Shown: piece by piece, positions 3,031 through 24,556 of the stretch
Position numbering within the stretch: the stretch's first letter is position 1
Layout: each line of letters opens with the position of its first letter
Assembly (NCBI GenBank): GCA_035531735.1
Contig: DATKSH010000271.1
Location: forward strand, 1-28,817
Direction of reading: 5' to 3'
Source: Alphaproteobacteria bacterium
Lineage (GTDB): Bacteria; Pseudomonadota; Alphaproteobacteria; UBA9219
Length of the DNA stretch: 28,817 nucleotides
Notes under the pieces: model-generated
Database searches by the model: none
Seen by the model: only the letters and a program-made list of their open reading frames with translations
Told to the model about the DNA's origin: nothing
Position numbers and translations under genes: made by a program

Positions 3031-3171
3031 GTTTCATTAACTTACCGGAGGTTGCGAAAGTAGCCTTTGACTTTTCAACCGCAAGTAGACATAAAACCGC
3101 CGCACACGTTCGTGTGCCCTGCCTCCCAGCCCTTCTTCCAAGGGCTTCCTTTCGCATTCGATATTATTGCC

Positions 3172-5004
3172 ATGAAGCCAGCACACGCTCTTTCCGTGTT
3201 GCTTCTCGCGGCTGCCTTGACTGCTTTGCAGGGCTGCTCGGGGAGCATGTTTCCGGGCGGCAACCAGATCGATCCGTCGGGTGGCCTCACGCGCGCCGAC
3301 TATCTCGCCTTGCGAAAACGCGAGGCACTGGCGCTCAAGGCCCAAAAACAGCAAAAGGAAGCGCCACCGATCCCGCCGATGCCGATCGAAACCGGGACGT
3401 TGCCGAAGCCGCTGCCCGGGCATAATAAACTGGTAAGCGTCAGCGTCACCGACAGCGTGCCGCTGCGTAACGTGCTGATCCAATTGGCACGCGAAGCGGG
3501 AGTCAATCTCGAACTCGATCCACGCGTCAAGGGCGGCGTCATTTTTACCGCCAACGACCAGTCTTTCGACCGGGTTTTGCACCATATTTGCGACCTAGCC
3601 GGCCTGCGCATCGAAATGGACGGCAACTTTATCCATATCGAGCCCGACGATCCGTATGAGAAAACCTATCAGCTCAGCTATCTGAGCCTTACGCGCAAGA
3701 CCACCAGCGAAACCTCGATCGCCACCAACGTGTTCGACGTCGATGTCGGCAACGGCACCGGCGGCGTCAACGGCTCTTTCGGCGGCAGCGGCGCGAACGG
3801 CATCGCCGGCACCGGGAACAACTCGACCTCGCGCATTTCCGGCACCTCGGATGCCGATTTCTGGGACGAGGTCAAGGCCTCGCTGGCGCAAATCCTGTCC
3901 TCGACCGGCCAAAACGCCAAGGGCGCGGACAAGGCCAGCTTCAGCATCGACCAGCAGGCCGGCATGGTCACGGTCTATGGCAACGACCGCCAGCAAGGCG
4001 CGGTCGCCGCCTATGTCAAGGCGTTGCGCCGCAAAGCCTATGCGCAGGTACTGATCGACGCGCGCATCATCGAGGTCGAGCTTAACGACAGCTTCCAGAG
4101 CGGCATCGACTGGCGCACCCTGTTCGGCGGCGCCTTCAACGCCGCCGCGCGCTTCGGCCCGGCCGCCGTCGGCGCACCTTTCACCACCGCGACCACCGCC
4201 ACCAACGGGGTCTTCACCGCCTCGATCAACGACGCGCATTTCGCCGACATCATCAATTTGGTGCGCAGCTTCGGCACCACGCGCGTCCTCTCGGCGCCGC
4301 GCCTGACGGTGCTGAACAACCAGACGGCGGTGCTGAAAGTGGCGACCAATCAGGTCTATTTCGTCACGCAGGCACAATTCACCACCGTGACCAACGCCAA
4401 CGGTTCGGCCGTGACGACGACGCCGGTCTATACCAGCACGCCGCGCACGGTGCCGGTCGGACTCGTGATGACAGTGCAACCCTCGATCGATCCCGCCCAC
4501 GACCTCGTGACCATGACGCTGCGCCCCACCATCTCGCGCGTCGTCAGCGAAGTGGACGATCCCTCCATCGGCCTCAACGCTGCACAGGCGGGCGTCACCA
4601 ACCCGGTCGAATCGCAGATTCCTGTGCTGGCGGTGCGCGAGATGGATTCGGTCCTGCAACTTCATTCCGGCCAGATCGCCGTCATGGGCGGCTTGATGCA
4701 GGATAGCTCGATCAACACCGACGCCGGCGTGCCGCCGTTCGACACGCTGCCGGTGATCGGCAATCTGGCCAAAAGCCGCGACGACGCCGGCGACACCACC
4801 GAGCTGGTGATCCTTTTGCGCGCGACCATCACCAACGGCGGCCCGTCGCCCGACGGCGCCGACCGCGCGCTCTACGCCGATTACAGCAACGATCCGCGTC
4901 CCTTGCCGCTACCGGTGCCGGCGGCATGGAGCGAAAAGAAACCGAAAGTTCGAGAATCGAAGTTAGCCGATAAAAAACCCGAATTGGCCTTTCCCACCCC
5001 CTAG
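3172..5004 (+). CDS. Outer-membrane secretin of a type IV filament system, MshL-like lipoprotein (start revised from 3067 to ATG 3172)
   Basis: MKPAHALSVLLLAAALTALQGC is a lipoprotein signal (Cys codon 3235-3237). STN-like domain (VPLRNVLIQLAREAGVNL), MshL-type Y.LSYLSLTR and DFWDEVKASLAQIL segments with a G/S/N-rich loop. Secretin core: QVLIDARIIEVEL, VLSAPRLTVLNNQTAVLKV, VGLVMTVQP, LPVIGNL, TELVILLRATI. Confidence 0.9.
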   Translation: MKPAHALSVLLLAAALTALQGCSGSMFPGGNQIDPSGGLTRADYLALRKREALALKAQKQQKEAPPIPPMPIETGTLPKPLPGHNKLVSVSVTDSVPLRNVLIQLAREAGVNLELDPRVKGGVIFTANDQSFDRVLHHICDLAGLRIEMDGNFIHIEPDDPYEKTYQLSYLSLTRKTTSETSIATNVFDVDVGNGTGGVNGSFGGSGANGIAGTGNNSTSRISGTSDADFWDEVKASLAQILSSTGQNAKGADKASFSIDQQAGMVTVYGNDRQQGAVAAYVKALRRKAYAQVLIDARIIEVELNDSFQSGIDWRTLFGGAFNAAARFGPAAVGAPFTTATTATNGVFTASINDAHFADIINLVRSFGTTRVLSAPRLTVLNNQTAVLKVATNQVYFVTQAQFTTVTNANGSAVTTTPVYTSTPRTVPVGLVMTVQPSIDPAHDLVTMTLRPTISRVVSEVDDPSIGLNAAQAGVTNPVESQIPVLAVREMDSVLQLHSGQIAVMGGLMQDSSINTDAGVPPFDTLPVIGNLAKSRDDAGDTTELVILLRATITNGGPSPDGADRALYADYSNDPRPLPLPVPAAWSEKKPKVRESKLADKKPELAFPTP

Positions 5005-5021
5005 CCCCGAGGACCCAAGCC

Positions 5022-5660
5022 ATGCGCAACCGATCCCTTCGCCGCGCCGCCGGATTCACGCTGGTGGAACTGTCAATCGTCCTCGTCATCATCGGCCTTA
5101 TCATCGGCGGCGTCTTGACCGGCCAGCAGATCATCCAGAACGCCCGCATCACCCGCGCGCTCAACGACGTCCAGGCCTACGAAGCGCAGTTCCAGACTTA
5201 TCAGCAGAATTTCGGCGCCTTGCCGGGCGACGACGCCAGCGCCGTGACGCGTTTCCTCAACGTGGCGCCGGCCAACGGCAACGGCGACGGCACCCTGCAA
5301 GGCACTTTCGATTCCGCGACCGCGACCGACGAAAGCCGCCTCGTATGGGCCGATCTGCGCGCCGCCAGCCTCGTCAAGAACCAGGTGCCGATTACCGCCC
5401 AGCCGCCCAATCCCTTCGACGGTATCTATGGCTTCCAGAATGGCGCGTTCGGCGGCGTCTTCACCACCACCGTGCTGTGCCTCAACGACGTGCCGGCGGC
5501 GGCGGCGCAGGCGATCGACACGCGGCTCGACGACGGCAACAGCAACGCGGGCGCGATCCAGGCGATGGCCGCGACCGGCGCGGTCGGCGAGGCCACCAGC
5601 GGCACCGTCGCCGCCAATTACGGCGCGGCCGAGACTTATACGATGTGCATCAGGATGTGA
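5022..5660 (+). CDS. Type IV prepilin (probable major pilin/pseudopilin)
   Basis: Basic leader MRNRSLRRAAG, then G|FTLVELSIVLVIIGLIIGG (Gly -1, Phe +1, Glu +5), ALPGD motif, and two C-terminal Cys (VLCL...MCIRM) consistent with a D-region disulfide. Confidence 0.92.
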   Translation: MRNRSLRRAAGFTLVELSIVLVIIGLIIGGVLTGQQIIQNARITRALNDVQAYEAQFQTYQQNFGALPGDDASAVTRFLNVAPANGNGDGTLQGTFDSATATDESRLVWADLRAASLVKNQVPITAQPPNPFDGIYGFQNGAFGGVFTTTVLCLNDVPAAAAQAIDTRLDDGNSNAGAIQAMAATGAVGEATSGTVAANYGAAETYTMCIRM

Positions 5661-5661
5661 G

Positions 5662-5736
5662 TCAGATGACGGAATACAGGTATCAGAAGGCAGCCCTTAT
5701 TTTTCTGATACCCGATCCCTGCCTTCTGCCTTCTGA
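5662..5736. repeat. 7-bp-periodic imperfect palindromic element (copy 1)
   Basis: Left arm cagatga/cggaata/caggtat/cagaagg/cag, right arm ctgatac/ccgatcc/ctgcctt/ctgcctt/ctga. Perfect inverted pairs 5679-5688 with 5703-5712 and 5683-5693 with 5726-5736. Confidence 0.8.
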
Positions 5737-6592
5737 AGGCTTCACCCTGGTCGAAATGGCGGTGGTGCTGATCGTAATTGGGCTTATCGTCCTCGCGGTC
5801 TTCCCGGCTCTCACCGCCCTGCGCATGAGCGGTCAGCGTACGCTGACCCAAAGCAACCTGAACAGCCTCATGCGCGCGACGGCGGCTTACGCAGAGGCCA
5901 ACGGATGCCTGCCCTGCCCGACGCCAGCCAGCACGATAGGATCGGGCTTCGGCCGCGTGCGCGGTGACGGCAGCGCGTCACCGGCCGCCTGCGGCGCCTG
6001 CGCAGCGCCGGAAGGCATCGCGCCGTTCATGTCGCTGGGCCTGCCGGCCGAAGCCGCGCGCGACGGCTGGGGCCACTGGATTACGATGCGGGTCGACCCG
6101 GCCTTGACCGTTAATCCCGCCAACAGCGCGAATCCGGTGGGCGTCGTGCCGCCCTTCGCGCCCTGCACCGCCGCCGATCTCGCCGCATCGCCGGTGACGG
6201 CAAGCTGCAGATTGCAAGGCGCCAGCCAGAAAGGCCTGTGCCGCACAGGACTTGCCGCCGCGGGGCGCATCGACGTGACGACGCCCGGCAATGCCAATCC
6301 CCAGCAAACCGCCGTTATTTTCGTCAGTTACGGCGCGCAGGGTTACGGTTCCTTTTCCGCCAGCGTCAACCTGACCGGCACCAACGGCGCGCAACTGCCG
6401 TTTCCTTCTTCGATGCCGGCCTGTTCGGCGAGTGAAGGCTTCACGCGCTGCAACGCCGCCGGCACCACGCAATTCGTCGATGCGCCGATCACGGTCGGCG
6501 GCGGCGACCCTTATGACGACCTGCTGGCCTATGCCGACCGCAACACGCTTTTAAGCATGTTCGGCAACGGCAGTTGCCAAACGGTGTGGTGA
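5666..6592 (+). CDS. Type IV prepilin-like protein (minor pilin, Cys-rich); start ATG 5666 or GTG 5657, not 5345
   Basis: SEG|FTLVEMAVVLIVIGLIVLAVF cleavage/methylation motif (Gly codon 5738-5740), RDGWG motif, 10 Cys in the mature part. GTG 5657 overlaps the upstream stop. Confidence 0.85.
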   Translation: MTEYRYQKAALIFLIPDPCLLPSEGFTLVEMAVVLIVIGLIVLAVFPALTALRMSGQRTLTQSNLNSLMRATAAYAEANGCLPCPTPASTIGSGFGRVRGDGSASPAACGACAAPEGIAPFMSLGLPAEAARDGWGHWITMRVDPALTVNPANSANPVGVVPPFAPCTAADLAASPVTASCRLQGASQKGLCRTGLAAAGRIDVTTPGNANPQQTAVIFVSYGAQGYGSFSASVNLTGTNGAQLPFPSSMPACSASEGFTRCNAAGTTQFVDAPITVGGGDPYDDLLAYADRNTLLSMFGNGSCQTVW

Positions 6593-6603
6593 GGAGGCAC
6601 GCG

Positions 6604-8409
6604 ATGGCCAGCAATCTGCGCCTCGTCGCCGACGAAACACCCGGCGAAACGCCGGCCGTCGCCGATACGCTGGGCGCGCGGCTGGTCGAGCTCGGCCTCG
6701 TCACGCCGGATCAATTGCGGATTGCCCTGCACGAGCAACGGCGCGGCGGCCATATGCTGGGCCTCACCCTCGTCGAACTCGGCTTTCTCGGCGAGGACGA
6801 CCTGGCCGGCGTCTTGGCGGAGCGCACCGGCCGGCGGCGCATCGATTTGCGCAAGACGCCGCCCGATCCTGATCTCATGGAAAAAGTGCCGGAAGCCGTG
6901 GCGCGCCGTTGCCGCGCGGTGCCGGCGCGCCTTAAGGGCGACACGCTCGAACTGGCAATGGCCGATCCCTATGACGTGACGGCAATCGACGAAATGCGCC
7001 GCTATTTCCCGCGCCGCGTCGAGATCGTGCCGCTGGTCGCGGCCGCCGCCGACATCATGGCGTTGCTCGACCACGCCGACCGCGCGGCCGCCTCGATCAA
7101 CGACATTCTGAAAGAACTTGAAACCGGCGAAAGCGCCGAGGGCGAAGAGGCGTGGCAACACCCGGTCGTGCGGCTCGTCAACACGCTTTTGGCCGACGCC
7201 GCGCGGCGCGGCGCCTCGGACCTGCATTTCGAGCCGGAAAACAGCTTCGTGCGCTTGCGTTACCGCATCGACGGGGTGCTAACCCAAGTCCGCGCCATTC
7301 ATCGCACCCATTGGCCGGAGCTTTCGCACCGGCTCAAGATCATGGGCGGGCTCAACATCGCCGACCAGCGCAGCCTGCAGGACGGGCGTTTCCGCCTTTC
7401 GATCAACGGCGCGGAGATCGATTTCCGCATCGCCGTGATGCCAACCGTGCAGGGCGAGAATATCACCGTGAGGGTGCTCGATCATCGCCGCGCGCTGGTG
7501 CCGCTTGAGCAACTCGGTTTCGGCGGCGCGGCGCTCAAGGAACTTGGCCGCATGCTGGAACGGCCCGAAGGCATCGTCCTCGTTACCGGCCCCACCGGCT
7601 GCGGCAAGACCACCACGCTTTATTCGATGCTGGCCAAAATCAGCACCGTCGAGGTCAACATCATGACCCTCGAAGAGCCGGTCGAATACCAGTTGAGCCT
7701 GATCCGCCAGACCGCCGTTGCCGAAGCGCAAGGCCTGACTTTTGCCGAAGGCGTACGCGGAATTTTGCGGCAAGATCCCGACATCATCTTCATCGGCGAG
7801 GTGCGCGATCCCGACACCGCGCAAATGGCGCTGCGCGCCGCCATGACCGGCCATCAGGTGTTTTCGACCCTGCATTGCAACGACGCGGCCGGCGCCTTGC
7901 CGCGCCTTTACGATCTCGGCCTCGGCCCGCGCGCGCTACAGGGAAACCTGAGCGGCATCGTCGGCCAGCGCCTCGTGCGCTGCCTCTGTCCACATTGCAA
8001 GCGTCCGCGCGCGGCCAATGAGGAGGAGCAAAAAATCCTCAGCACCTTCGCGCCGAACACGGGCATTGAAACACCGGCTTCGGCCACGCATCGGGCGCCG
8101 GGTTTCGCCGAAACGCAAAGCGCCTATCTCGGGCCGGCACCGGCCGCGCCCGTCATTTATGAAGCCGTCGGTTGCGCGCAATGCAACGGCAGCGGCCATA
8201 AGGGGCGCATCGCGGTCGCCGAAGTGCTGCGCATCGCGCCGGCGCTCGACGAATTGATCGCCCGCGACGCCGGGCGCGGCGAGATCATGCAGGCCGCGCG
8301 CGGCGAAGGATTCCGCGGCATGGCCGAGGACGGCATGCAAAAGGTTCTCGCCGGCACGATTGCGCTCGACAGTTTGCGCCGCGCGATCGATGTGACGGGG
8401 ATCGGCTGA
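6604..8409 (+). CDS. PilB/GspE/MshE-family extension ATPase (start revised to ATG 6604)
   Basis: RBS GAGGAGG at 6591-6597. MshEN-like N-terminus, ASDLHFEP, VRLRYRIDGVL, QDGRF, Walker A GPTGCGKTT, TLEEPVEY, RQDPDIIFIGEVRD, TGHQVFSTLH, and a tetracysteine CPHC...CAQC. Confidence 0.95.
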   Translation: MASNLRLVADETPGETPAVADTLGARLVELGLVTPDQLRIALHEQRRGGHMLGLTLVELGFLGEDDLAGVLAERTGRRRIDLRKTPPDPDLMEKVPEAVARRCRAVPARLKGDTLELAMADPYDVTAIDEMRRYFPRRVEIVPLVAAAADIMALLDHADRAAASINDILKELETGESAEGEEAWQHPVVRLVNTLLADAARRGASDLHFEPENSFVRLRYRIDGVLTQVRAIHRTHWPELSHRLKIMGGLNIADQRSLQDGRFRLSINGAEIDFRIAVMPTVQGENITVRVLDHRRALVPLEQLGFGGAALKELGRMLERPEGIVLVTGPTGCGKTTTLYSMLAKISTVEVNIMTLEEPVEYQLSLIRQTAVAEAQGLTFAEGVRGILRQDPDIIFIGEVRDPDTAQMALRAAMTGHQVFSTLHCNDAAGALPRLYDLGLGPRALQGNLSGIVGQRLVRCLCPHCKRPRAANEEEQKILSTFAPNTGIETPASATHRAPGFAETQSAYLGPAPAAPVIYEAVGCAQCNGSGHKGRIAVAEVLRIAPALDELIARDAGRGEIMQAARGEGFRGMAEDGMQKVLAGTIALDSLRRAIDVTGIG

Positions 8410-9638
8410 TGCCCGCCTATCGCTATCGCGCCGTGCGCGCCGCGGGCGGCATCGCCAAGGGGCGCCTCGTCGCCGCCAACGAAAGCGAGTTGGCGCAGCA
8501 TCTTAACGCCGCCGGGCTCGAACTGATCGCGGCGCGCGCGAAAAACGAAACGCTCGCGCCGCGTGCGCGTTTTTATCCGCGCCTCGAAATCCGTTCGGAG
8601 CCGCGGGCGCTGGCCGGTTTTTGCCTGCAAATGAGCGATCTGCTGGCGGCCGGCATTTCCTTCGCCGCCGCGCTTTCCGATCTCGAAAGCGCGGCGGCGT
8701 CGCCGGCGTTGCGCGAGGCTCTGGCCGACGTCGCGCGCGAGGTGCGGCATGGATCGATGATCTCGGCCGCCTTCGCCCGTCATCCGCGCCTGTTTCCCGA
8801 TATTTTCGTCGCCATTCTCGCCGCCGGCGAGAAAAGCGGCGATCTCGAAAAAACCTTCGCCCATCTCGCGCGCTACGCCGAAACCCGCGCCCGCACGGCC
8901 GAGCAATTGCGTCGCGCGCTGCGCTATCCGCTGTTTTTGTTCGCGGTCGCCATCGGCGTGGTCGTTTTCATGATGATCATGGTGGTGCCGGAGGTGATCC
9001 AGTTCCTCAAGACTTTCCACAACCGGTTGCCGCTAGCGACCCGCGTCTTGATCGCGGTTTCGCAAATCGTCGTCGAAGGCTGGTGGATCGCGGGCCTCGC
9101 CATCGCCGGTATGATTGCCGCGCTGGCAATTGCGCGCAAGCACTCGCAAGCCGTGGCGTGCACGCTCGACAGCGCGCTTTTGCGCCTGCCGCTGCTCGGC
9201 CCGGCCCTGCGCAAACTGGCCCTCGCGCGTTTTACCCACAGCTTCGCCATTTTGTTCCAAAGCGGGCTCGGCGTGCCGGCCAGCCTGCGCGCGGCCAAGG
9301 CGGCACTCGGCAACAAGGCCCTCGAAGCCGCGCTCGGAGACGCCGAGCGGCAGGTGCAGGCCGGCCGCGCGCTGTCGGCGGCGATGGAAAACCTGTTTCC
9401 ACCCTTCGCCGCGCGGCTGTTGCGCACCGGCGAGCAAAGCGGGCGGCTCGGCAAGGCGCTCGGCCATATCGCATCCGCTTACGACCGCGAAGTGACGGAT
9501 GTCACCGAACGATTGATCGGCGCGATCGAACCGGCGCTGACGCTGATGATCGGCTTGATTCTGGTATGGGTGGTGCTGGCGGTGCTGGGGCCGATTTACG
9601 GCAATCTCGCCAGGATCACCGCGTCGGGGGGCTATTGA
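8409..9638 (+). CDS. PilC/GspF/MshG-family inner-membrane platform protein
   Basis: MPAYRYRAV start, two repeats of the T2SSF motif (AGEKSGDL...ALRYP; TGEQSGRL...IEPAL), three hydrophobic segments, stop/start overlap with the ATPase gene. Confidence 0.93.
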   Translation: MPAYRYRAVRAAGGIAKGRLVAANESELAQHLNAAGLELIAARAKNETLAPRARFYPRLEIRSEPRALAGFCLQMSDLLAAGISFAAALSDLESAAASPALREALADVAREVRHGSMISAAFARHPRLFPDIFVAILAAGEKSGDLEKTFAHLARYAETRARTAEQLRRALRYPLFLFAVAIGVVVFMMIMVVPEVIQFLKTFHNRLPLATRVLIAVSQIVVEGWWIAGLAIAGMIAALAIARKHSQAVACTLDSALLRLPLLGPALRKLALARFTHSFAILFQSGLGVPASLRAAKAALGNKALEAALGDAERQVQAGRALSAAMENLFPPFAARLLRTGEQSGRLGKALGHIASAYDREVTDVTERLIGAIEPALTLMIGLILVWVVLAVLGPIYGNLARITASGGY

Positions 9639-18046: not shown

Positions 18047-20711
18047 CGAGGAAAACCGTCCGTCGCCGGAGGCGTTGCTGGCCGAGGCCAAGCGCGAGGC
18101 GCGCGGCAAGTTGAAAATTTTCATCGGCGCGGCGCCCGGCGTCGGCAAGACGTTCTCCATGCTGCGCGCGGCGCAAGCAAAGAAACAGGAAGGCATCGAC
18201 GTCGCGGTCGGTATCGTCGAAACCCATCGGCGCAGCGAAACCGAAACGCTGCTGGCCGGGTTGGAGATCATCCCGCGCCTCGACATCAATTATCGCGGCA
18301 TTCCGTTCCAGGAAATGGACCTCGACGCGGTCCTGAAACGCGCGCCGAAACTGGTGCTGATCGACGAATTGGCCCATTCCAACATTCCCGGCAGCCGCCA
18401 TCCCAAACGTTACCAGGATGTCGAGGAATTGCTCGACGCCGGCATCGACGTCTATTCGACGCTCAACGTCCAGCATATCGAAAGCCTGAATGACATCGTT
18501 GCGCGCATCACCGGCGTCACGGTGCGCGAGACGGTGCCCGACGACATCGTGCAGAAGGCCGATTCAATCGAACTGATCGATTTGACACCGGAAGAACTTT
18601 TGCAGCGCTTGAAGGAAGGCAAGGTCTATATCCCGGCGCAGGCACGCCTCGCCATGGGCCGCTTTTTCACCGCCGGCAATTTGACGGCCTTGCGTGAGCT
18701 GGCCTTGCGGCAGGCGGCCGCCCGCGTCGACGAGCAAATGGCCGATTATATGCGCAGCCACGCGATCGAAGGCCCATGGCCGACCAGCGAGCGCATCCTC
18801 GTCTGCATCGCTGGTGACGGGCAATCGCTGGCCCTGATCCGCACGGCCAAGCGCAGCGCCGAGCGCCGCCATGTGCCGTGGCTGGCGCTTTACGTCGAAA
18901 CCCATCATCACGCGGAACTGGGCGAGAGCGCGCGGCAGGAAATCGCCCAGGCCCTGCGCCTAGCCGAAAGCCTCGGTGGCGAGACCCAGACGGTGGCGGC
19001 CGAGGACGTGGCGGGCGAAGTGCTGCGCGTGGCGCGCGAAAAGAACGTCAGCGTCATCATCATCGGCCGCTCGGTGCGCACGCTGGGCTCGCGGCTTTTG
19101 CGTCCCTCGGTGGCAGCGGCCCTGCTCGACCGCAACGAGGATTTCGACATCCTCGTCATGAGCGGCAACGAAGACAAACGCCCGCGCAAGGACGACGGGC
19201 CGCGCCCCGCGCGGCCGTGGTTCACCGGTCATTGGCGCGCGTGGCTCGAAGCGACACTGGTGGTCGGCCTCGCCAGCATCGTCGCCGCCGGTGCCGGCCA
19301 TTTGACCGATCCGCCGACGCTGGGGCTGATCTACCTGGTCGCCGTGATGCTGCTGGCGGTCGACCGCGACATTCGCGTTTCGCTTTACGCCGCAATCCTC
19401 AGCGGCGTTGCCTTCGATTTCCTGTTCTTGCCGCCGCGTTATTCGCTGATGATCGACCAGCATCAGGATTTTTTGTTGCTGTCGTTCTTCCTGGTCGTCG
19501 CGGCAGTCGCCTGCCTGATCGGGTCGCGCCTGCAAAAGCAGATCGCCGTCACGCGCCACAACGCGCGCCGCACGCAGGCGCTCTACGATTTCGACAAGGC
19601 CATCGCGCAGGCGGTGACGCTCGACAACATCCTGCAAACCATGGTGCGGCACGTGGCGGCGACCCTGAAGGCACGGGCGGCTGTGTTGCTGCCCGAGGGC
19701 GAGCGGCTTGAAATGGCCGCTCTTTATCCCGATACTACGCGGCTCGATACCGCCTCGACGGCGGCGATGGATTGGGCCTTCAGCCACGGCAGGCCGGCCG
19801 GTTTCAAATCCGACACGCTGCCCGGCGCCGCGTTTTACGGGTTGCCGCTGCGCGCCGGCAACGAGACCGTCGGTGTGCTGGCGGTGCAGGCGGAGGACGG
19901 AGCGCCGCTGTCGCCCGACCAGATGCATTTGCTCGACAGCTTCGCCAACCTGTCGGCGGTCGCCATCCAGCGCACGCGCCTGGCCGGCGACATCGAGCAG
20001 GCGCGGCTCGAAACCGAGACCGAGCGCCTGCGCTCGAGCCTGTTGTCGTCCGTCAGCCACGATTTGCGCACGCCGCTGGTCGCCATTCTCGGCGCCACCA
20101 CCAGCCTGCGCGATTACTGGGACAAATTCGACAACAAGGCGCGGCGCGAATTGTTCGGCACCATCGAGGAGGAAGCCGGGCGCCTCGATCGCTTCGTGCA
20201 AAACCTGCTCGACATGACGCAACTGGTGGCCGGCGGCCTCAAGTTGAAGCGCCAACCGATCGACGTGCAGGATTTGATCGGCGCGGCACTCGGCAAGCTC
20301 AGAAAACAGCTAGGTGGGCGGCCGCTCAGGCTCGACATTCCCGACAACCTGCCACCGATCGACGGCGATTTTGCCATCCTCGAACGCGTCTTGGTCAACA
20401 TCCTCGACAATGCCTGCAAATACGCACCGGAGGATCAGCCCGTCACCGTCACCGCGCGGCGCGAGGCGCATTACATAGGACTCACCATCACCGACCGCGG
20501 CGCCGGCATCCCCGAGGAGGAACGCGAACGCGTGTTCGATATGTTCTATCGCGTCAAGGTCGGCGCCACGCCGACCGCGGGTGCCGGCCTTGGCTTGGCG
20601 ATCTGCCGCGGCTTCATCGAGGCGCATGAAGGTCGCATTAACGCCCTGCCCGGCACTGACGGCATCGGCACGCAGATCGTCTTGCGGCTGCCGATTTCAG
20701 AAAGCAGATAG
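18036..20711 (+). CDS. kdpD: Sensor histidine kinase KdpD
   Basis: GKLKIFIGAAPGVGKTFSML, DELAHSN, KRYQDVEELL, USP domain, four TM helices, GAF-like region, SSVSHDLRTPL, NILDNACKY, G boxes (DRGAGI, GLGLAIC). Confidence 0.97.
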   Translation: MADNEENRPSPEALLAEAKREARGKLKIFIGAAPGVGKTFSMLRAAQAKKQEGIDVAVGIVETHRRSETETLLAGLEIIPRLDINYRGIPFQEMDLDAVLKRAPKLVLIDELAHSNIPGSRHPKRYQDVEELLDAGIDVYSTLNVQHIESLNDIVARITGVTVRETVPDDIVQKADSIELIDLTPEELLQRLKEGKVYIPAQARLAMGRFFTAGNLTALRELALRQAAARVDEQMADYMRSHAIEGPWPTSERILVCIAGDGQSLALIRTAKRSAERRHVPWLALYVETHHHAELGESARQEIAQALRLAESLGGETQTVAAEDVAGEVLRVAREKNVSVIIIGRSVRTLGSRLLRPSVAAALLDRNEDFDILVMSGNEDKRPRKDDGPRPARPWFTGHWRAWLEATLVVGLASIVAAGAGHLTDPPTLGLIYLVAVMLLAVDRDIRVSLYAAILSGVAFDFLFLPPRYSLMIDQHQDFLLLSFFLVVAAVACLIGSRLQKQIAVTRHNARRTQALYDFDKAIAQAVTLDNILQTMVRHVAATLKARAAVLLPEGERLEMAALYPDTTRLDTASTAAMDWAFSHGRPAGFKSDTLPGAAFYGLPLRAGNETVGVLAVQAEDGAPLSPDQMHLLDSFANLSAVAIQRTRLAGDIEQARLETETERLRSSLLSSVSHDLRTPLVAILGATTSLRDYWDKFDNKARRELFGTIEEEAGRLDRFVQNLLDMTQLVAGGLKLKRQPIDVQDLIGAALGKLRKQLGGRPLRLDIPDNLPPIDGDFAILERVLVNILDNACKYAPEDQPVTVTARREAHYIGLTITDRGAGIPEEERERVFDMFYRVKVGATPTAGAGLGLAICRGFIEAHEGRINALPGTDGIGTQIVLRLPISESR

Positions 20712-20803
20712 CAGAAGACGGGGATCGGAAGCGTTTCATACCCGGCAATGCAGCATTTTAACACATTGCTTTTGATACCTGTCTTCTGTCTTCTGCCCTC
20801 TGA
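20697..20803. repeat. 7-bp-periodic imperfect palindromic element (copy 2)
   Basis: Left arm cagaaag/cagatag/cagaaga/cggggat/cggaagc, right arm ttgatac/ctgtctt/ctgtctt/ctgccct/ctga. The arms match at 23 of 32 positions by my manual alignment. Inner IR gcaatg (20745-20750) / cattgc (20764-20769). Confidence 0.8.
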
Positions 20804-24211: not shown

Positions 24212-24556
24212 TCAATCCTCTGTCTTCCGGTTTCCGTCTTCCGCCTTCGGTTTCCAGCCGATCCCTTGCTCATAGCCGCCCAGCGCGCGCCACATATTGG
24301 CGAGCCCGGCAACGAACCCGGCCAGCAGCAGGCCCAGCATAACCCACGGCCGGGTTCCCAATTGCCGATCGACCAGAAAGCCGACCGCGCCGCAGACCAT
24401 GACCGTCGCCACGAAATCGAAACCCATGCGCCCGGCCTTGGCGAGGCCAAACCGGTCGCCGGCTTCGGTTCCTTCCGGCTGCGCCGGTTTCGCGCCGGCC
24501 TTATCGATGCGCGCCGCAAGATCGTCCAGCCTGTTGCGTTCGGGATCGCCTGTCAT
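24212..24556 (-). CDS. AtpZ/AtpI-family protein (start revised to ATG 24556)
   Basis: LDDLAARIDKA, GFDFVATVMVCGAVGFLVDRQLGTRPWVMLGLLLAGFVAGLANMWR; first gene of the F0 operon. Confidence 0.88.
   Translation of the reverse strand: MTGDPERNRLDDLAARIDKAGAKPAQPEGTEAGDRFGLAKAGRMGFDFVATVMVCGAVGFLVDRQLGTRPWVMLGLLLAGFVAGLANMWRALGGYEQGIGWKPKAEDGNRKTED
24220..24254. repeat. Single arm of the 7-bp-periodic repeat family (copy 3)
   Basis: ctgtctt/ccggttt/ccgtctt/ccgcctt/cggtttc. The first unit is identical to the units at 20779-20792. Confidence 0.65.

Follow-up and report, generated by a model that had tools for sequence, protein, structure and literature searches.

According to the summary in PMC10969869, Rickettsia palindromic elements (RPEs) are small, multi-copy palindromes that carry no gene and lie in frame within coding genes without destroying them. 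The element described here shares these properties. RPEs differ from it in being about 150 bp long, in having no heptamer structure, and in being retained in the mature protein, whereas the present element provides a start codon and a leader whose removal is predicted. The likeness is functional only. An Rfam scan of positions 5400-6000 at E ≤ 1 returned no match.

Heptameric repeats have been described in Xanthomonas (GGGAATC) and Nostoc (GGGGAYT), where they occur as convergent pairs capable of forming stem-loops, with 70 pairs in Xcc (Rehm et al. 2015, PMC4692102). About 90% of these repeats are intergenic and near a neighbouring ORF, and their length and sequence vary widely between related species (PMC4692102). 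The present element likewise consists of arrays of 7-nucleotide units, often in inverted pairs. It differs in its units (CAGAAGR/CAGGKAT), in a fixed order of unit types within each arm, and in not being G-quadruplex-prone; translation of the repeats into a leader peptide is not described in that paper. TAACTGA heptamers form direct repeats in Beggiatoaceae, cyanobacteria, and Bacteroidetes, with only a single indirect repeat reported (PMC4679880). These and the cyanobacterial STRR heptamers resemble the present family in placing 7-nucleotide units within a few nucleotides of start codons and in their patchy phylogenetic distribution, but the TAACTGA repeats are direct and the family here is composed of palindromes.

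REP/BIME sequences, such as that between malE and malF, are dispersed palindromes that immediately follow a highly expressed first cistron on its 3' side, and intercistronic protective structures of this sort may sit inside the downstream ORF (PMC5927463). The present element has the same position. It does not contain the GTAG motif.

The leader at this locus has 25 residues ending in Gly and is followed by a hydrophobic N-terminus with Glu5, as in type IVb prepilins. Type IVb prepilin leaders are long, at about 15-30 residues. The length of the present leader comes from the insertion of a repeat, and the orthologues have type-IVa-like leaders, mostly of 3-14 residues. No repeat-encoded prepilin leader was found in the literature collection searched. 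At this locus, a dispersed non-autonomous repeat fills the junction between two pilin genes and probably gives the second its start codon and whole leader, which is predicted to be cleaved off.

The element at the pilin junction

The window, defined here as the whole stretch of DNA analysed, is 28,817 nucleotides in length. The source organism is an uncultured soil bacterium, and its genome is 74% complete. The major pilin gene (5022..5660, + strand, from the ORF list) has a Pfam N_methyl match with an E value of 5.4e-6, the leader MRNRSLRRAAG/FTLVEL (the slash marks predicted cleavage), and a TGA stop codon at 5658-5660. Downstream on the same strand is a gene for a Cys-rich pilin-like protein. 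Its Gly(-1) codon, GGC, is at 5738..5740 within the motif G/FTLVEM and is the predicted prepilin peptidase site. The mature part, placed by homologue comparison, is 283 residues long and occupies 5741..6592 with its stop codon. The protein has 201 homologues at E ≤ 1e-20, among which Cys, Gly, and Pro columns are invariant. Its own N_methyl match (E 2.9e-4, 20.7 bits) is slightly below the 21.2 cut-off, and its orthologues carry PF07963. The sequence G/FTLVEMAVVLIVIGLIVLAVF shows the class III signal peptide pattern, with Gly(-1), a hydrophobic residue at +1, Glu at +5, and about 20 hydrophobic residues.

The element (5662..5737, + strand) was delimited by arm-model matches, exact stems, and lag-7 periodicity, and occupies the entire interval between the major-pilin stop codon and the Gly codon. 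The arm model matches 5661-5693 on the + strand (E 0.035) and 5700-5737 on the - strand (E 5e-10). The left arm (5663..5693) reads CAGATGA CGGAATA CAGGTAT CAGAAGG CAG, is purine-rich, and encodes MTEYRYQKA. It is identical at 24 of 26 bases, counted by eye, to a copy on the minus strand of contig C248 (CAGATGACGGAAGACAGGTATCAGAA). An approximate loop at 5694..5699, taken from the minimum free energy structure of the dominant hairpin, separates it from the right arm (5700..5737). The right arm, TTTTTCTGATA CCCGATC CCTGCCT TCTGCCT TCTGAA, encodes FLIPDPCLLPSE and is an inverted heptamer array; at 5719-5735 the unit CTGCCTT repeats perfectly about 2.4 times (read by eye). It is the top-scoring arm in the genome, but was itself a seed of the arm model.

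The earlier note had described an imperfect palindrome with a 7-bp period and two perfect stems, and both descriptions hold. Autocorrelation over 5662-5736 is 0.47 at lag 7 and 0.13-0.30 at lags 1-6 and 8-13, and the lag-7 value is matched by about 1 in 10,000 mononucleotide shuffles. The segments 5679-5688/5703-5712 and 5683-5693/5726-5736 are exact reverse complements, and a third perfect register pairs 5684-5693 with 5719-5728. The fold of 5655-5745 has a free energy of −29.2 kcal/mol (z = −3.2), and none of 200 shuffles was equally stable. A terminator and promoter scan of 4900-6700 found nothing at the element, including no U-tract terminator. In three soil-metagenome runs, one of which may be the source sample, contigs bridge the element with zero differences and confirm its placement, so it is no artefact of assembly. 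A search among RNA runs gave none containing the locus.

The repeat family

The arm model gave 49 matches in the genome at E ≤ 0.2, distributed over 32 loci, of which 17 are two-armed. This bears out the genome-wide repetition expected earlier. Copies are 70-150 bp long at about 32 loci and have no ORF of their own, which agrees with MITEs in size and copy number. They are imperfect palindromes, mostly extragenic and in high copy number, as are REP/REPIN sequences. Their arms are tandem 7-nucleotide units in convergent orientation, with lag-7 autocorrelation of 0.47-0.58, and many of the 17 two-armed copies are 0-8 nucleotides from gene ends, as are intergenic heptameric inverted pairs. Many copies were also seen to run a few codons into the ends of genes. 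Among the family's natural terminal heptamers is CAGATGA, which occurs in this genome (G000) on contigs C57, C195, and C248, and in copies of G018. Further heptamer sub-families with other units exist.

Six further genera of the order also carry copies. The pattern CRGGKATCRGGNATCRGA has 17 matches in this genome, 11, 5, 4, 3, 2, and 1 in these six genera, and none in 34 other relatives; the reversed pattern, used as a control, has 0-2 matches in any genome. The tallies for relatives include one unpublished genome (G023), on which no claim depends.

Two further sites in the window had been named as recurrences. That at 20696..20802 (+ strand) is a full, two-armed copy (arm-model E 0.008 and 0.003), and its left arm provides the last codons and stop (SESR*) of the preceding long ORF. 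The names kdpD, for this ORF, and kdpE come from the earlier reading of the sequence. The site at 24215..24254 (- strand) encodes a C-terminal tail and holds the related heptamers CGGAAGA CGGAAAC CGGAAGA CAGAGGA. As it is a single array without a score from the arm model, the recurrence stands here only in part, and the site is not a full copy.

The comparison to MITEs and RPEs also holds in part. The behaviour of the element is RPE-like, but its sequence is not, and strict MITE membership fails on target-site duplications. In 18 copies, the longest string common to a copy's own flanks averages 3.2 nucleotides, compared to 3.7 for mismatched flanks. One Y1_Tnp gene with an HHV motif was identified (C9:5058-5729), and heptamer arrays are absent from its flanks. 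A link to RAYT was rejected for this reason, and the family differs from REP/BIME in the same respect. No autonomous element with family arms was noticed among the arm matches in the genome at its present completeness. Complementarity between the arms of one copy is not above that between arms of different copies (p = 0.36), so copy-specific selection on the hairpin is unsupported.

Orthologous junctions

About 50 orthologous junctions were compared, of which 49 are distinct. In 31 of these the junction is at most 59 nucleotides long, and the leaders are mostly basic and 3-14 residues long (for example, MPMDR/G, MRKR/G, and MTRSSRS/G), which mostly agrees with the short, insert-free leaders that had been predicted. 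The other 18 are at least 70 nucleotides long, with inserts of 70-645 nucleotides, and 15 of them fold with z ≤ −2.2. Among the 14 inserts of 70-161 nucleotides, 12 have an open frame with the nearest in-frame start at least 15 codons upstream. The inserts belong to repeat families that are unrelated to one another, and those of L022 and L055 are terminator-like hairpins. At the next junction of the operon, from the pilin to the ATPase, no insert was found in 41 loci.

Clear heptamer palindromes beginning with CAGATGAC are present in at least four junctions (G000, L074, G011, and L060). This sequence begins 2-4 nucleotides past the stop codon in the first three and 18 nucleotides past it in L060. 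All four keep the ATG of CAGATGA in frame with the frame open. The four fall in two clades of the locus tree, which rejects a clade of G000 and G011 (AU p = 2.8e-6) and with it a single common insertion in these two. The tree suggests long retention with repeated gain and loss of the element, rather than one recent landing.

Several kinds of hairpin repeat thus occupy the translated leader of the pilin-like gene in many lineages, and judged by these junctions, such repeats have landed in this leader repeatedly. The idea that the leader is a safe harbour is supported accordingly across lineages. None of the three contrary outcomes that the earlier note had set in advance, on genome-wide repetition, on the leaders of orthologues, and on the position of the start, was found.

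Translation of the element and alternative explanations

The only canonical in-frame starts before the Gly codon are GTG 5645, GTG 5657, and ATG 5666, which are 31, 27, and 24 codons from it. The ATG (5666..5668, + strand) is the nearest, is 5 nucleotides past the major-pilin stop codon, and is predicted to be 68% unpaired. Because this nearest start lies in the first heptamer (CAGATGA) and no canonical start exists downstream of the element, the element must be translated. The GFTLVE codons (GGN TTY ACN YTN RTN GAR) vary synonymously across about 50 orthologues and are therefore translated. The product is MTEYRYQKAALIFLIPDPCLLPSE-G/FTLVEM, as stated earlier, with 24 residues before the motif. 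This leader is acidic and partly hydrophobic, whereas those of the orthologues are basic. Its net charge of about −1, compared to +4 for the neighbouring MRNRSLRRAAG, agrees with its description as unlike a leader. The leader of P0003 (MAESRNQKAKIPFLMPDACSLYSGR/G) also looks element-encoded.

By comparison with the orthologues, a copy of the element has taken the place of the short, basic sequence that coded for the ancestral leader, and its CAGATGA heptamer supplies the ATG. The arms are inverted arrays of imperfect CAGNNNN heptamers with one frame open through both. Translation would begin at ATG 5666, probably by coupling to the end of major-pilin translation 5 nucleotides before it, and ribosomes would read through the hairpin to produce the 24-residue leader and then Gly. 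Prepilin peptidase would cut after Gly25, and the mature protein would therefore be unchanged. In a prepilin leader nothing but Gly(-1) matters, and the element copy probably persists for this reason, the leader being the one unconstrained stretch of a tightly packed operon. Peptidase_A24 has two matches in the genome, one of them on C216 within about 60 bases of the sequence end. The PilD-type peptidase is partly assembled in G000, with an N-domain match below the cut-off, and PilD-type N-domains are present in all 12 relatives searched. The 12-bp hairpin starts 13 nucleotides past the ATG and immediately follows the cistron of the abundant major pilin. By its likeness to REP and other intercistronic structures, it would probably lower expression of the downstream gene, protect the upstream mRNA segment, or both; this part of the reading is secondary and more weakly drawn.

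It had been proposed that alternative folds of the element tune the pilin ratio. This was not upheld, since adopting an alternative stem means a loss of 6.7-7.6 kcal/mol in stability. Such stems arise trivially because the arms consist of repeated heptamers. A two-state RNA switch was likewise rejected, as forcing stem B or B' costs this amount and stem A has a pairing probability of about 1. A fixed hairpin could nevertheless have been selected as a regulator, either a 3' protective structure or an attenuator, that sets the ratio of major to minor pilin, with the coding of a leader as its price, instead of being a selfish passenger that the operon tolerates. We hold this to be quite possible without thinking it probable. 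It is consistent with the 18 inserts in 49 junctions after the major pilin, 15 strongly folding and of unrelated families, against 0 of 41 at the next junction, and it has precedents in the malE-malF REP and in structures inside downstream ORFs (PMC5927463). Against it, 31 of the 49 lineages do without an insert, the arms show no copy-specific compensation, the family is also present at many unrelated junctions, and this junction may simply be the only non-overlapping one in the operon. In a bolder version, type IV pilin-like genes would in general offer their cleaved leader as an evolutionarily favoured dock for heptamer-palindrome repeats, as a mobile module of start, leader, and attenuator that is repeatedly acquired in the order; this is speculative and rather unlikely. 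In it, the hairpin would set the stoichiometry of the major pilin and downstream subunits, and the CAGATGA end would act as a portable start codon.

Three further alternatives were considered. Among protein relatives the closest, P0002 (76% identity), is called from a Leu start with a 3-residue leader (LQS/G). This is a protein record only, and a non-ATG start downstream is therefore conceivable here, leaving the element an untranslated intergenic hairpin with a short leader begun inside the right arm. The right-arm heptamers intrinsically contain in-frame CTG codons, and the candidates read by eye are CTG 5726-5728, which would give MPSE/G, and upstream in-frame CTG, ATT, or ATA codons. Bacterial ribosomes initiate very weakly at CTG, ATT, and ATA. 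The candidates have no purine-rich ribosome-binding site before them and are buried in the paired right arm, whereas the ATG is accessible 5 nucleotides past the upstream stop and is kept in frame and open at all four heptamer-type junctions. Part of the element would be translated even so, and we consider this explanation improbable. The insertion might instead have silenced the pilin-like gene, or be degrading it, with the open frame due to chance and the protein no longer made. The leader is indeed atypical in its acidity and hydrophobic stretch, and 33 of 102 element frames (32%) are open, near our rough expectation for random sequence. A special coding design of the repeat was rejected on this count, and an open frame in a single copy says little by itself. 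The 283-residue mature part is intact, however, with all invariant Cys, Gly, and Pro columns kept, and L074, G011, and L060 also keep the frame open, as do 12 of the 14 mid-sized inserts overall. Such openness is unlikely by chance at about 0.3 per junction, even for about six independent lineages, and loss of the protein is very improbable. Slippage by whole heptamers, each shifting the frame by one, could in principle switch the minor pilin by phase variation, given the perfect CTGCCTT units in the right arm and the variation of insert length and frame between lineages. Only about two units are perfect, the arms are imperfect, and contigs of the three runs contain no length variants, although contigs hide rare ones; this is the most improbable of the explanations considered.

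If the element is translated and its leader removed as proposed, the locus would be a natural example of (semi-)selfish hairpin repeats that colonise a dense operon harmlessly by overwriting a part of a gene that is discarded. The start codon of a gene and its complete leader peptide could then both come from a repeat. In the annotation of metagenome-assembled genomes, prepilin leaders that look long and odd may be genuine, and a start placed at the Met following Glu5 is probably an error. Prepilin peptidase is predicted to tolerate leaders that are unrelated in sequence, acidic, and partly hydrophobic. The heptamer-palindrome repeats themselves are widespread and patchily distributed, and the junction between major and minor pilin would be a site where RNA structure is repeatedly installed.

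The element within the type IV filament operon

The source genome assembly is 1.58 Mb in 313 contigs, is 74% complete, and has 60.6% G+C; the window is its contig C271. The element lies within a type IV filament operon composed of a secretin (3067-5004), the major pilin (5022-5660, MRNRSLRRAAG/FTLVEL, the slash marking the predicted prepilin peptidase cut here and below), a pilin-like gene of 308 codons (5666-6592), a GspE/MshE-type ATPase (about 6604-8409), and a GspF-type platform protein (8409-9638). Independent soil-metagenome contigs from three runs, one of which may be the source sample, span the element with zero differences, so it is not a binning or assembly artefact.

The interval between the major-pilin stop codon (TGA, 5658-5660) and the GGC codon at 5738-5740 is an imperfect palindrome. 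Its left arm reads CAGATGA CGGAATA CAGGTAT CAGAAGG CAG, and the right arm is an inverted array reading TTCTGATA CCCGATC CCTGCCT TCTGCCT TCTGAA. The 7-bp period described in the earlier note is borne out by a lag-7 autocorrelation of 0.47, with about 1 in 10,000 shuffles as high. The two perfect stems described there are both exact, and a third perfect stem register is also present. The frame from the ATG at 5666 gives, as previously read, MTEYRYQKAALIFLIPDPCLLPSE, then G/FTLVEMAVVLIVIGL. The predicted RNA fold of 5655-5745 has a free energy of -29.2 kcal/mol (z = -3.2). No Rfam match to the element was found. The alternative folds, proposed earlier as a means of tuning the pilin ratio, are real in the sequence, but arms made of repeated units give rise to them anyway. 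Their stability is 6.7-7.6 kcal/mol below that of the main stem, which does not support a two-state switch.

A dispersed heptamer family

The element was expected to recur genome-wide, and it does. The family was surveyed by permissive blastn, inspection of the matches, and then an nhmmer model of the arm, with genes called by a simple home-made caller. The arm consensus is approximately CAGAAGG CAGAAGA CAGGTAT CAGGKAT CAGAAAA. The source genome contains 49 arm matches at E<=0.2, distributed over 32 loci (52 matches at E<=1), and 17 of the 32 loci contain two inverted arms 5-70 nt apart. Copies are close to gene ends, many at 0-8 nt or overlapping a few codons. A specific 18-nt pattern has 17 matches in the source genome, 11, 5, 4, 3, 2, and 1 in six further genera of its order, and none in 34 other relatives; the reversed pattern, used as a control, has 0-2 matches in any genome. 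One unpublished genome (G023) is counted in the tallies only. Copies retrieved from these genera share the architecture of those in the source genome. No target-site duplications were found flanking family copies. Arm complementarity within a copy is not above that to the arms of other copies (p = 0.36), and each arm tracks the family consensus, not its own partner. The single Y1_Tnp gene of the source genome (C9:5058-5729, minus strand) encodes 223 residues and is HUH-type and RAYT-like; its flanks contain no heptamer arrays.

Sister sub-families are also present in the source genome. They too consist of a 7-nt-unit array, a loop, and the inverted array, but with other units, namely CAGCATT/CAGGGGT, CAGCTAA, and CAGATGT/CGGATGC (C17:3320, C32:7251, C36:625, C83:1513, C223:3882, C103:2107-2200, C147:170, C42:1704, C266:4270, and C255:2897). 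One of these loci contains a perfect 10-copy tandem, (CGGCATT)10, and some copies mix unit types between arms. In a relative, G011, two family copies (L035, contig C9; L037, contig C47) are directly upstream of genes that look by eye tRNA-like and 5S rRNA-like, so the repeats would occupy RNA-gene spacers too.

Of the two further occurrences noticed earlier in the window, the one at 20696-20802 is a full copy. It separates a long ORF from the gene that follows (previously read as kdpD and kdpE), and the upstream ORF takes its final four codons and its TAG stop from the left arm of this copy (SESR-stop). At 24215-24254 (minus strand) related units are present as a single arm only, encoding a C-terminal tail. 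A CAGATAG unit on contig C278 donates a stop in the same manner as the full copy (VVPEDR-stop). Purine-rich arms encode charged C-terminal tails of several proteins (window 24215-24254, minus strand; C39:1516-1556, C121, and C42), for example KPKAEDGNRKTED and GIRYQKSENRDRASDG, each followed by a stop, and this arm has few stop codons in the tail-coding orientation. Read 5' to 3', the palindrome encodes a basic hydrophilic stretch and then a hydrophobic one, the layout of a signal peptide. In two copies of the source genome (C199:5594-5693 and C161:4787-4894, minus strand), the loop and pyrimidine-rich arm seem to code for export signals at protein N-termini: a lipoprotein-like MKNLLSLFCLLIPVFCLPS/CG that starts at a loop TTG, and MMKKLLLLLACLLIPVFYPLSSAHA/A.

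Xanthomonas and Nostoc also have heptamer arrays that lie as inverted pairs close to the ends of ORFs, as this family does (PMC4692102). Heptamer repeats of Beggiatoaceae adjoin start codons (PMC4679880), and Rickettsia RPEs and other MITE-like elements are palindromic repeats read in frame, as here (PMC10969869). A literature search found no published description of a repeat of this kind encoding a prepilin leader.

Orthologous junctions and translation of the leader

GTDB genomes, together with contigs of public MAGs and JGI metagenomes, supplied 49 distinct orthologous junctions for comparison; public records label the relatives as uncultured Alphaproteobacteria, Rhodospirillales, Rhodospirillaceae, and some 'Bdellovibrionales' MAGs. 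As the earlier note had anticipated, 31 of the 49 are <=59 nt and unstructured, with leaders mostly of 3-14 residues (MRK/G, MRKR/G, MPMDR/G, MTRSSRS/G, MARRSCS/G). Leader lengths in large-database protein calls agree, with modes at 5-10 residues. The closest relative (P0002, 76% identity) is called with LQS/G. The other 18 junctions are 70-645 nt long, and 15 of them have a folding z <= -2.2. Inserts of 70-161 nt are open through the hairpin in 12 of 14 cases, with the nearest canonical in-frame start 15-40 codons upstream, and in the four inserts >220 nt a short leader is retained between the insert and Gly. The junction between the pilin-like gene and the ATPase has an insert in none of 41 loci.

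Clear heptamer palindromes are present at four junctions, those of the source genome, L074, G011, and L060 (lag-7 autocorrelation 0.46-0.48). They begin CAGATGAC 2-4 nt past the stop codon, or 18 nt past it in L060. The leaders of the last three are MTAGRDQGSERKYLFSDTYLRRSES/G (L074, with the right arm read in another frame), MTDCMDQKTEKPVPYLIPATCSLPSES/G (G011), and MTDDRIRKKFFFYPRHSISCHGA/G (L060). As the peptides differ even among heptamer-type copies, the peptide is unconstrained and the recurring part is the DNA. In L056, L012, L031 and L064, and where the L059 insert starts, the sequences look like degenerate members of the family or like members of other sub-families. Unrelated GC-rich hairpins occur within an open leader frame in L022, L055, L062, and L066, from other MAGs and metagenomes. 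Their predicted leaders are 33-53 residues long, L022 also has an in-frame TTG 12 codons before Gly, and two of these hairpins have a T-run after them, as intrinsic terminators do.

In about 50 orthologues the G-F-T-L-V/I-E codons vary synonymously while the residues are constant, so translation has to begin upstream of Gly. In the source genome the nearest canonical in-frame starts (ATG 5666, GTG 5657, and GTG 5645) are 24, 27, and 31 codons before Gly, all at or before the first heptamer. By the codon evidence and the position of these starts, the element must be translated. Chance alone leaves roughly a third of element frames open, so the case is built on the absence of another start and on recurrence, not on the open frame of this single copy. 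Roughly one tenth of database orthologues (P0034, P0038, P0039, P0047, P0084, P0088, P0093, P0094, P0104-P0106) have their start placed at the conserved Met that follows Glu5, or within a few residues downstream of it (MAVV, MSVV, MVLIV). GFTLVE is conserved at the protein level, so these starts seem to have been miscalled, perhaps because of upstream repeat inserts or non-ATG starts. Loci L010 and L068 (G019 and a JGI contig) have a 16-nt junction without a canonical in-frame start; their nearest in-frame ATG is 24 codons upstream, inside the 3'-terminal part of the major pilin gene, which is read in a different frame. Either the two genes would overlap by 50 nt or the start would be non-canonical.

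Initiation would occur at ATG 5666, which lies within CAGATGA, a natural terminal unit of the family (C57, C195, and C248 in the source genome and many copies in G018). This ATG is predicted to be 68% unpaired, and the 12-bp main stem begins 13 nt downstream. It is only 5 nt past the major-pilin stop, making termination-reinitiation coupling plausible. Prepilin peptidase would then cut after Gly25. The element may be tolerated because cleavage needs only Gly(-1) of the leader, as was reportedly found by mutagenesis of Pseudomonas PilA. Peptidase_A24 has two matches in the source genome, one of them no more than about 60 bases from where the available sequence of its contig stops; PilD-type N-domains were found in 12 of 12 relatives searched and weakly in the incomplete source genome.

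History and possible role of the insert

A tree of concatenated major pilin, pilin-like protein, and ATPase groups the source genome with L052, L012, L056, L065, and L074 (SH-aLRT 94), and places G011 in another group with L059, L060, and L032. Inserts of 70-80 nt are present in five of the six members of the source group. The insert is absent from L052 and from G060, which is of the same genus as G011. A clade of the source genome and G011, defined by presence of the element and not by the tree, is rejected (AU p = 2.8e-6), so the insert was gained at least twice, or recombination took place. A genome has some tens of copies and about 1,800 junctions; by our own rough estimate, it is unremarkable by itself that one junction was hit a second time among repeat-bearing genera. 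After gain, the insert appears to have been retained for long, with decay or loss.

Protective RNA structures have been described, and some lie within the ORF downstream (PMC5927463). These precedents, and the enrichment of structured inserts at exactly the junction of the major pilin and the pilin-like gene, fit a regulatory role. The hairpin may plausibly lower initiation of the downstream gene or protect the major-pilin segment of the mRNA.
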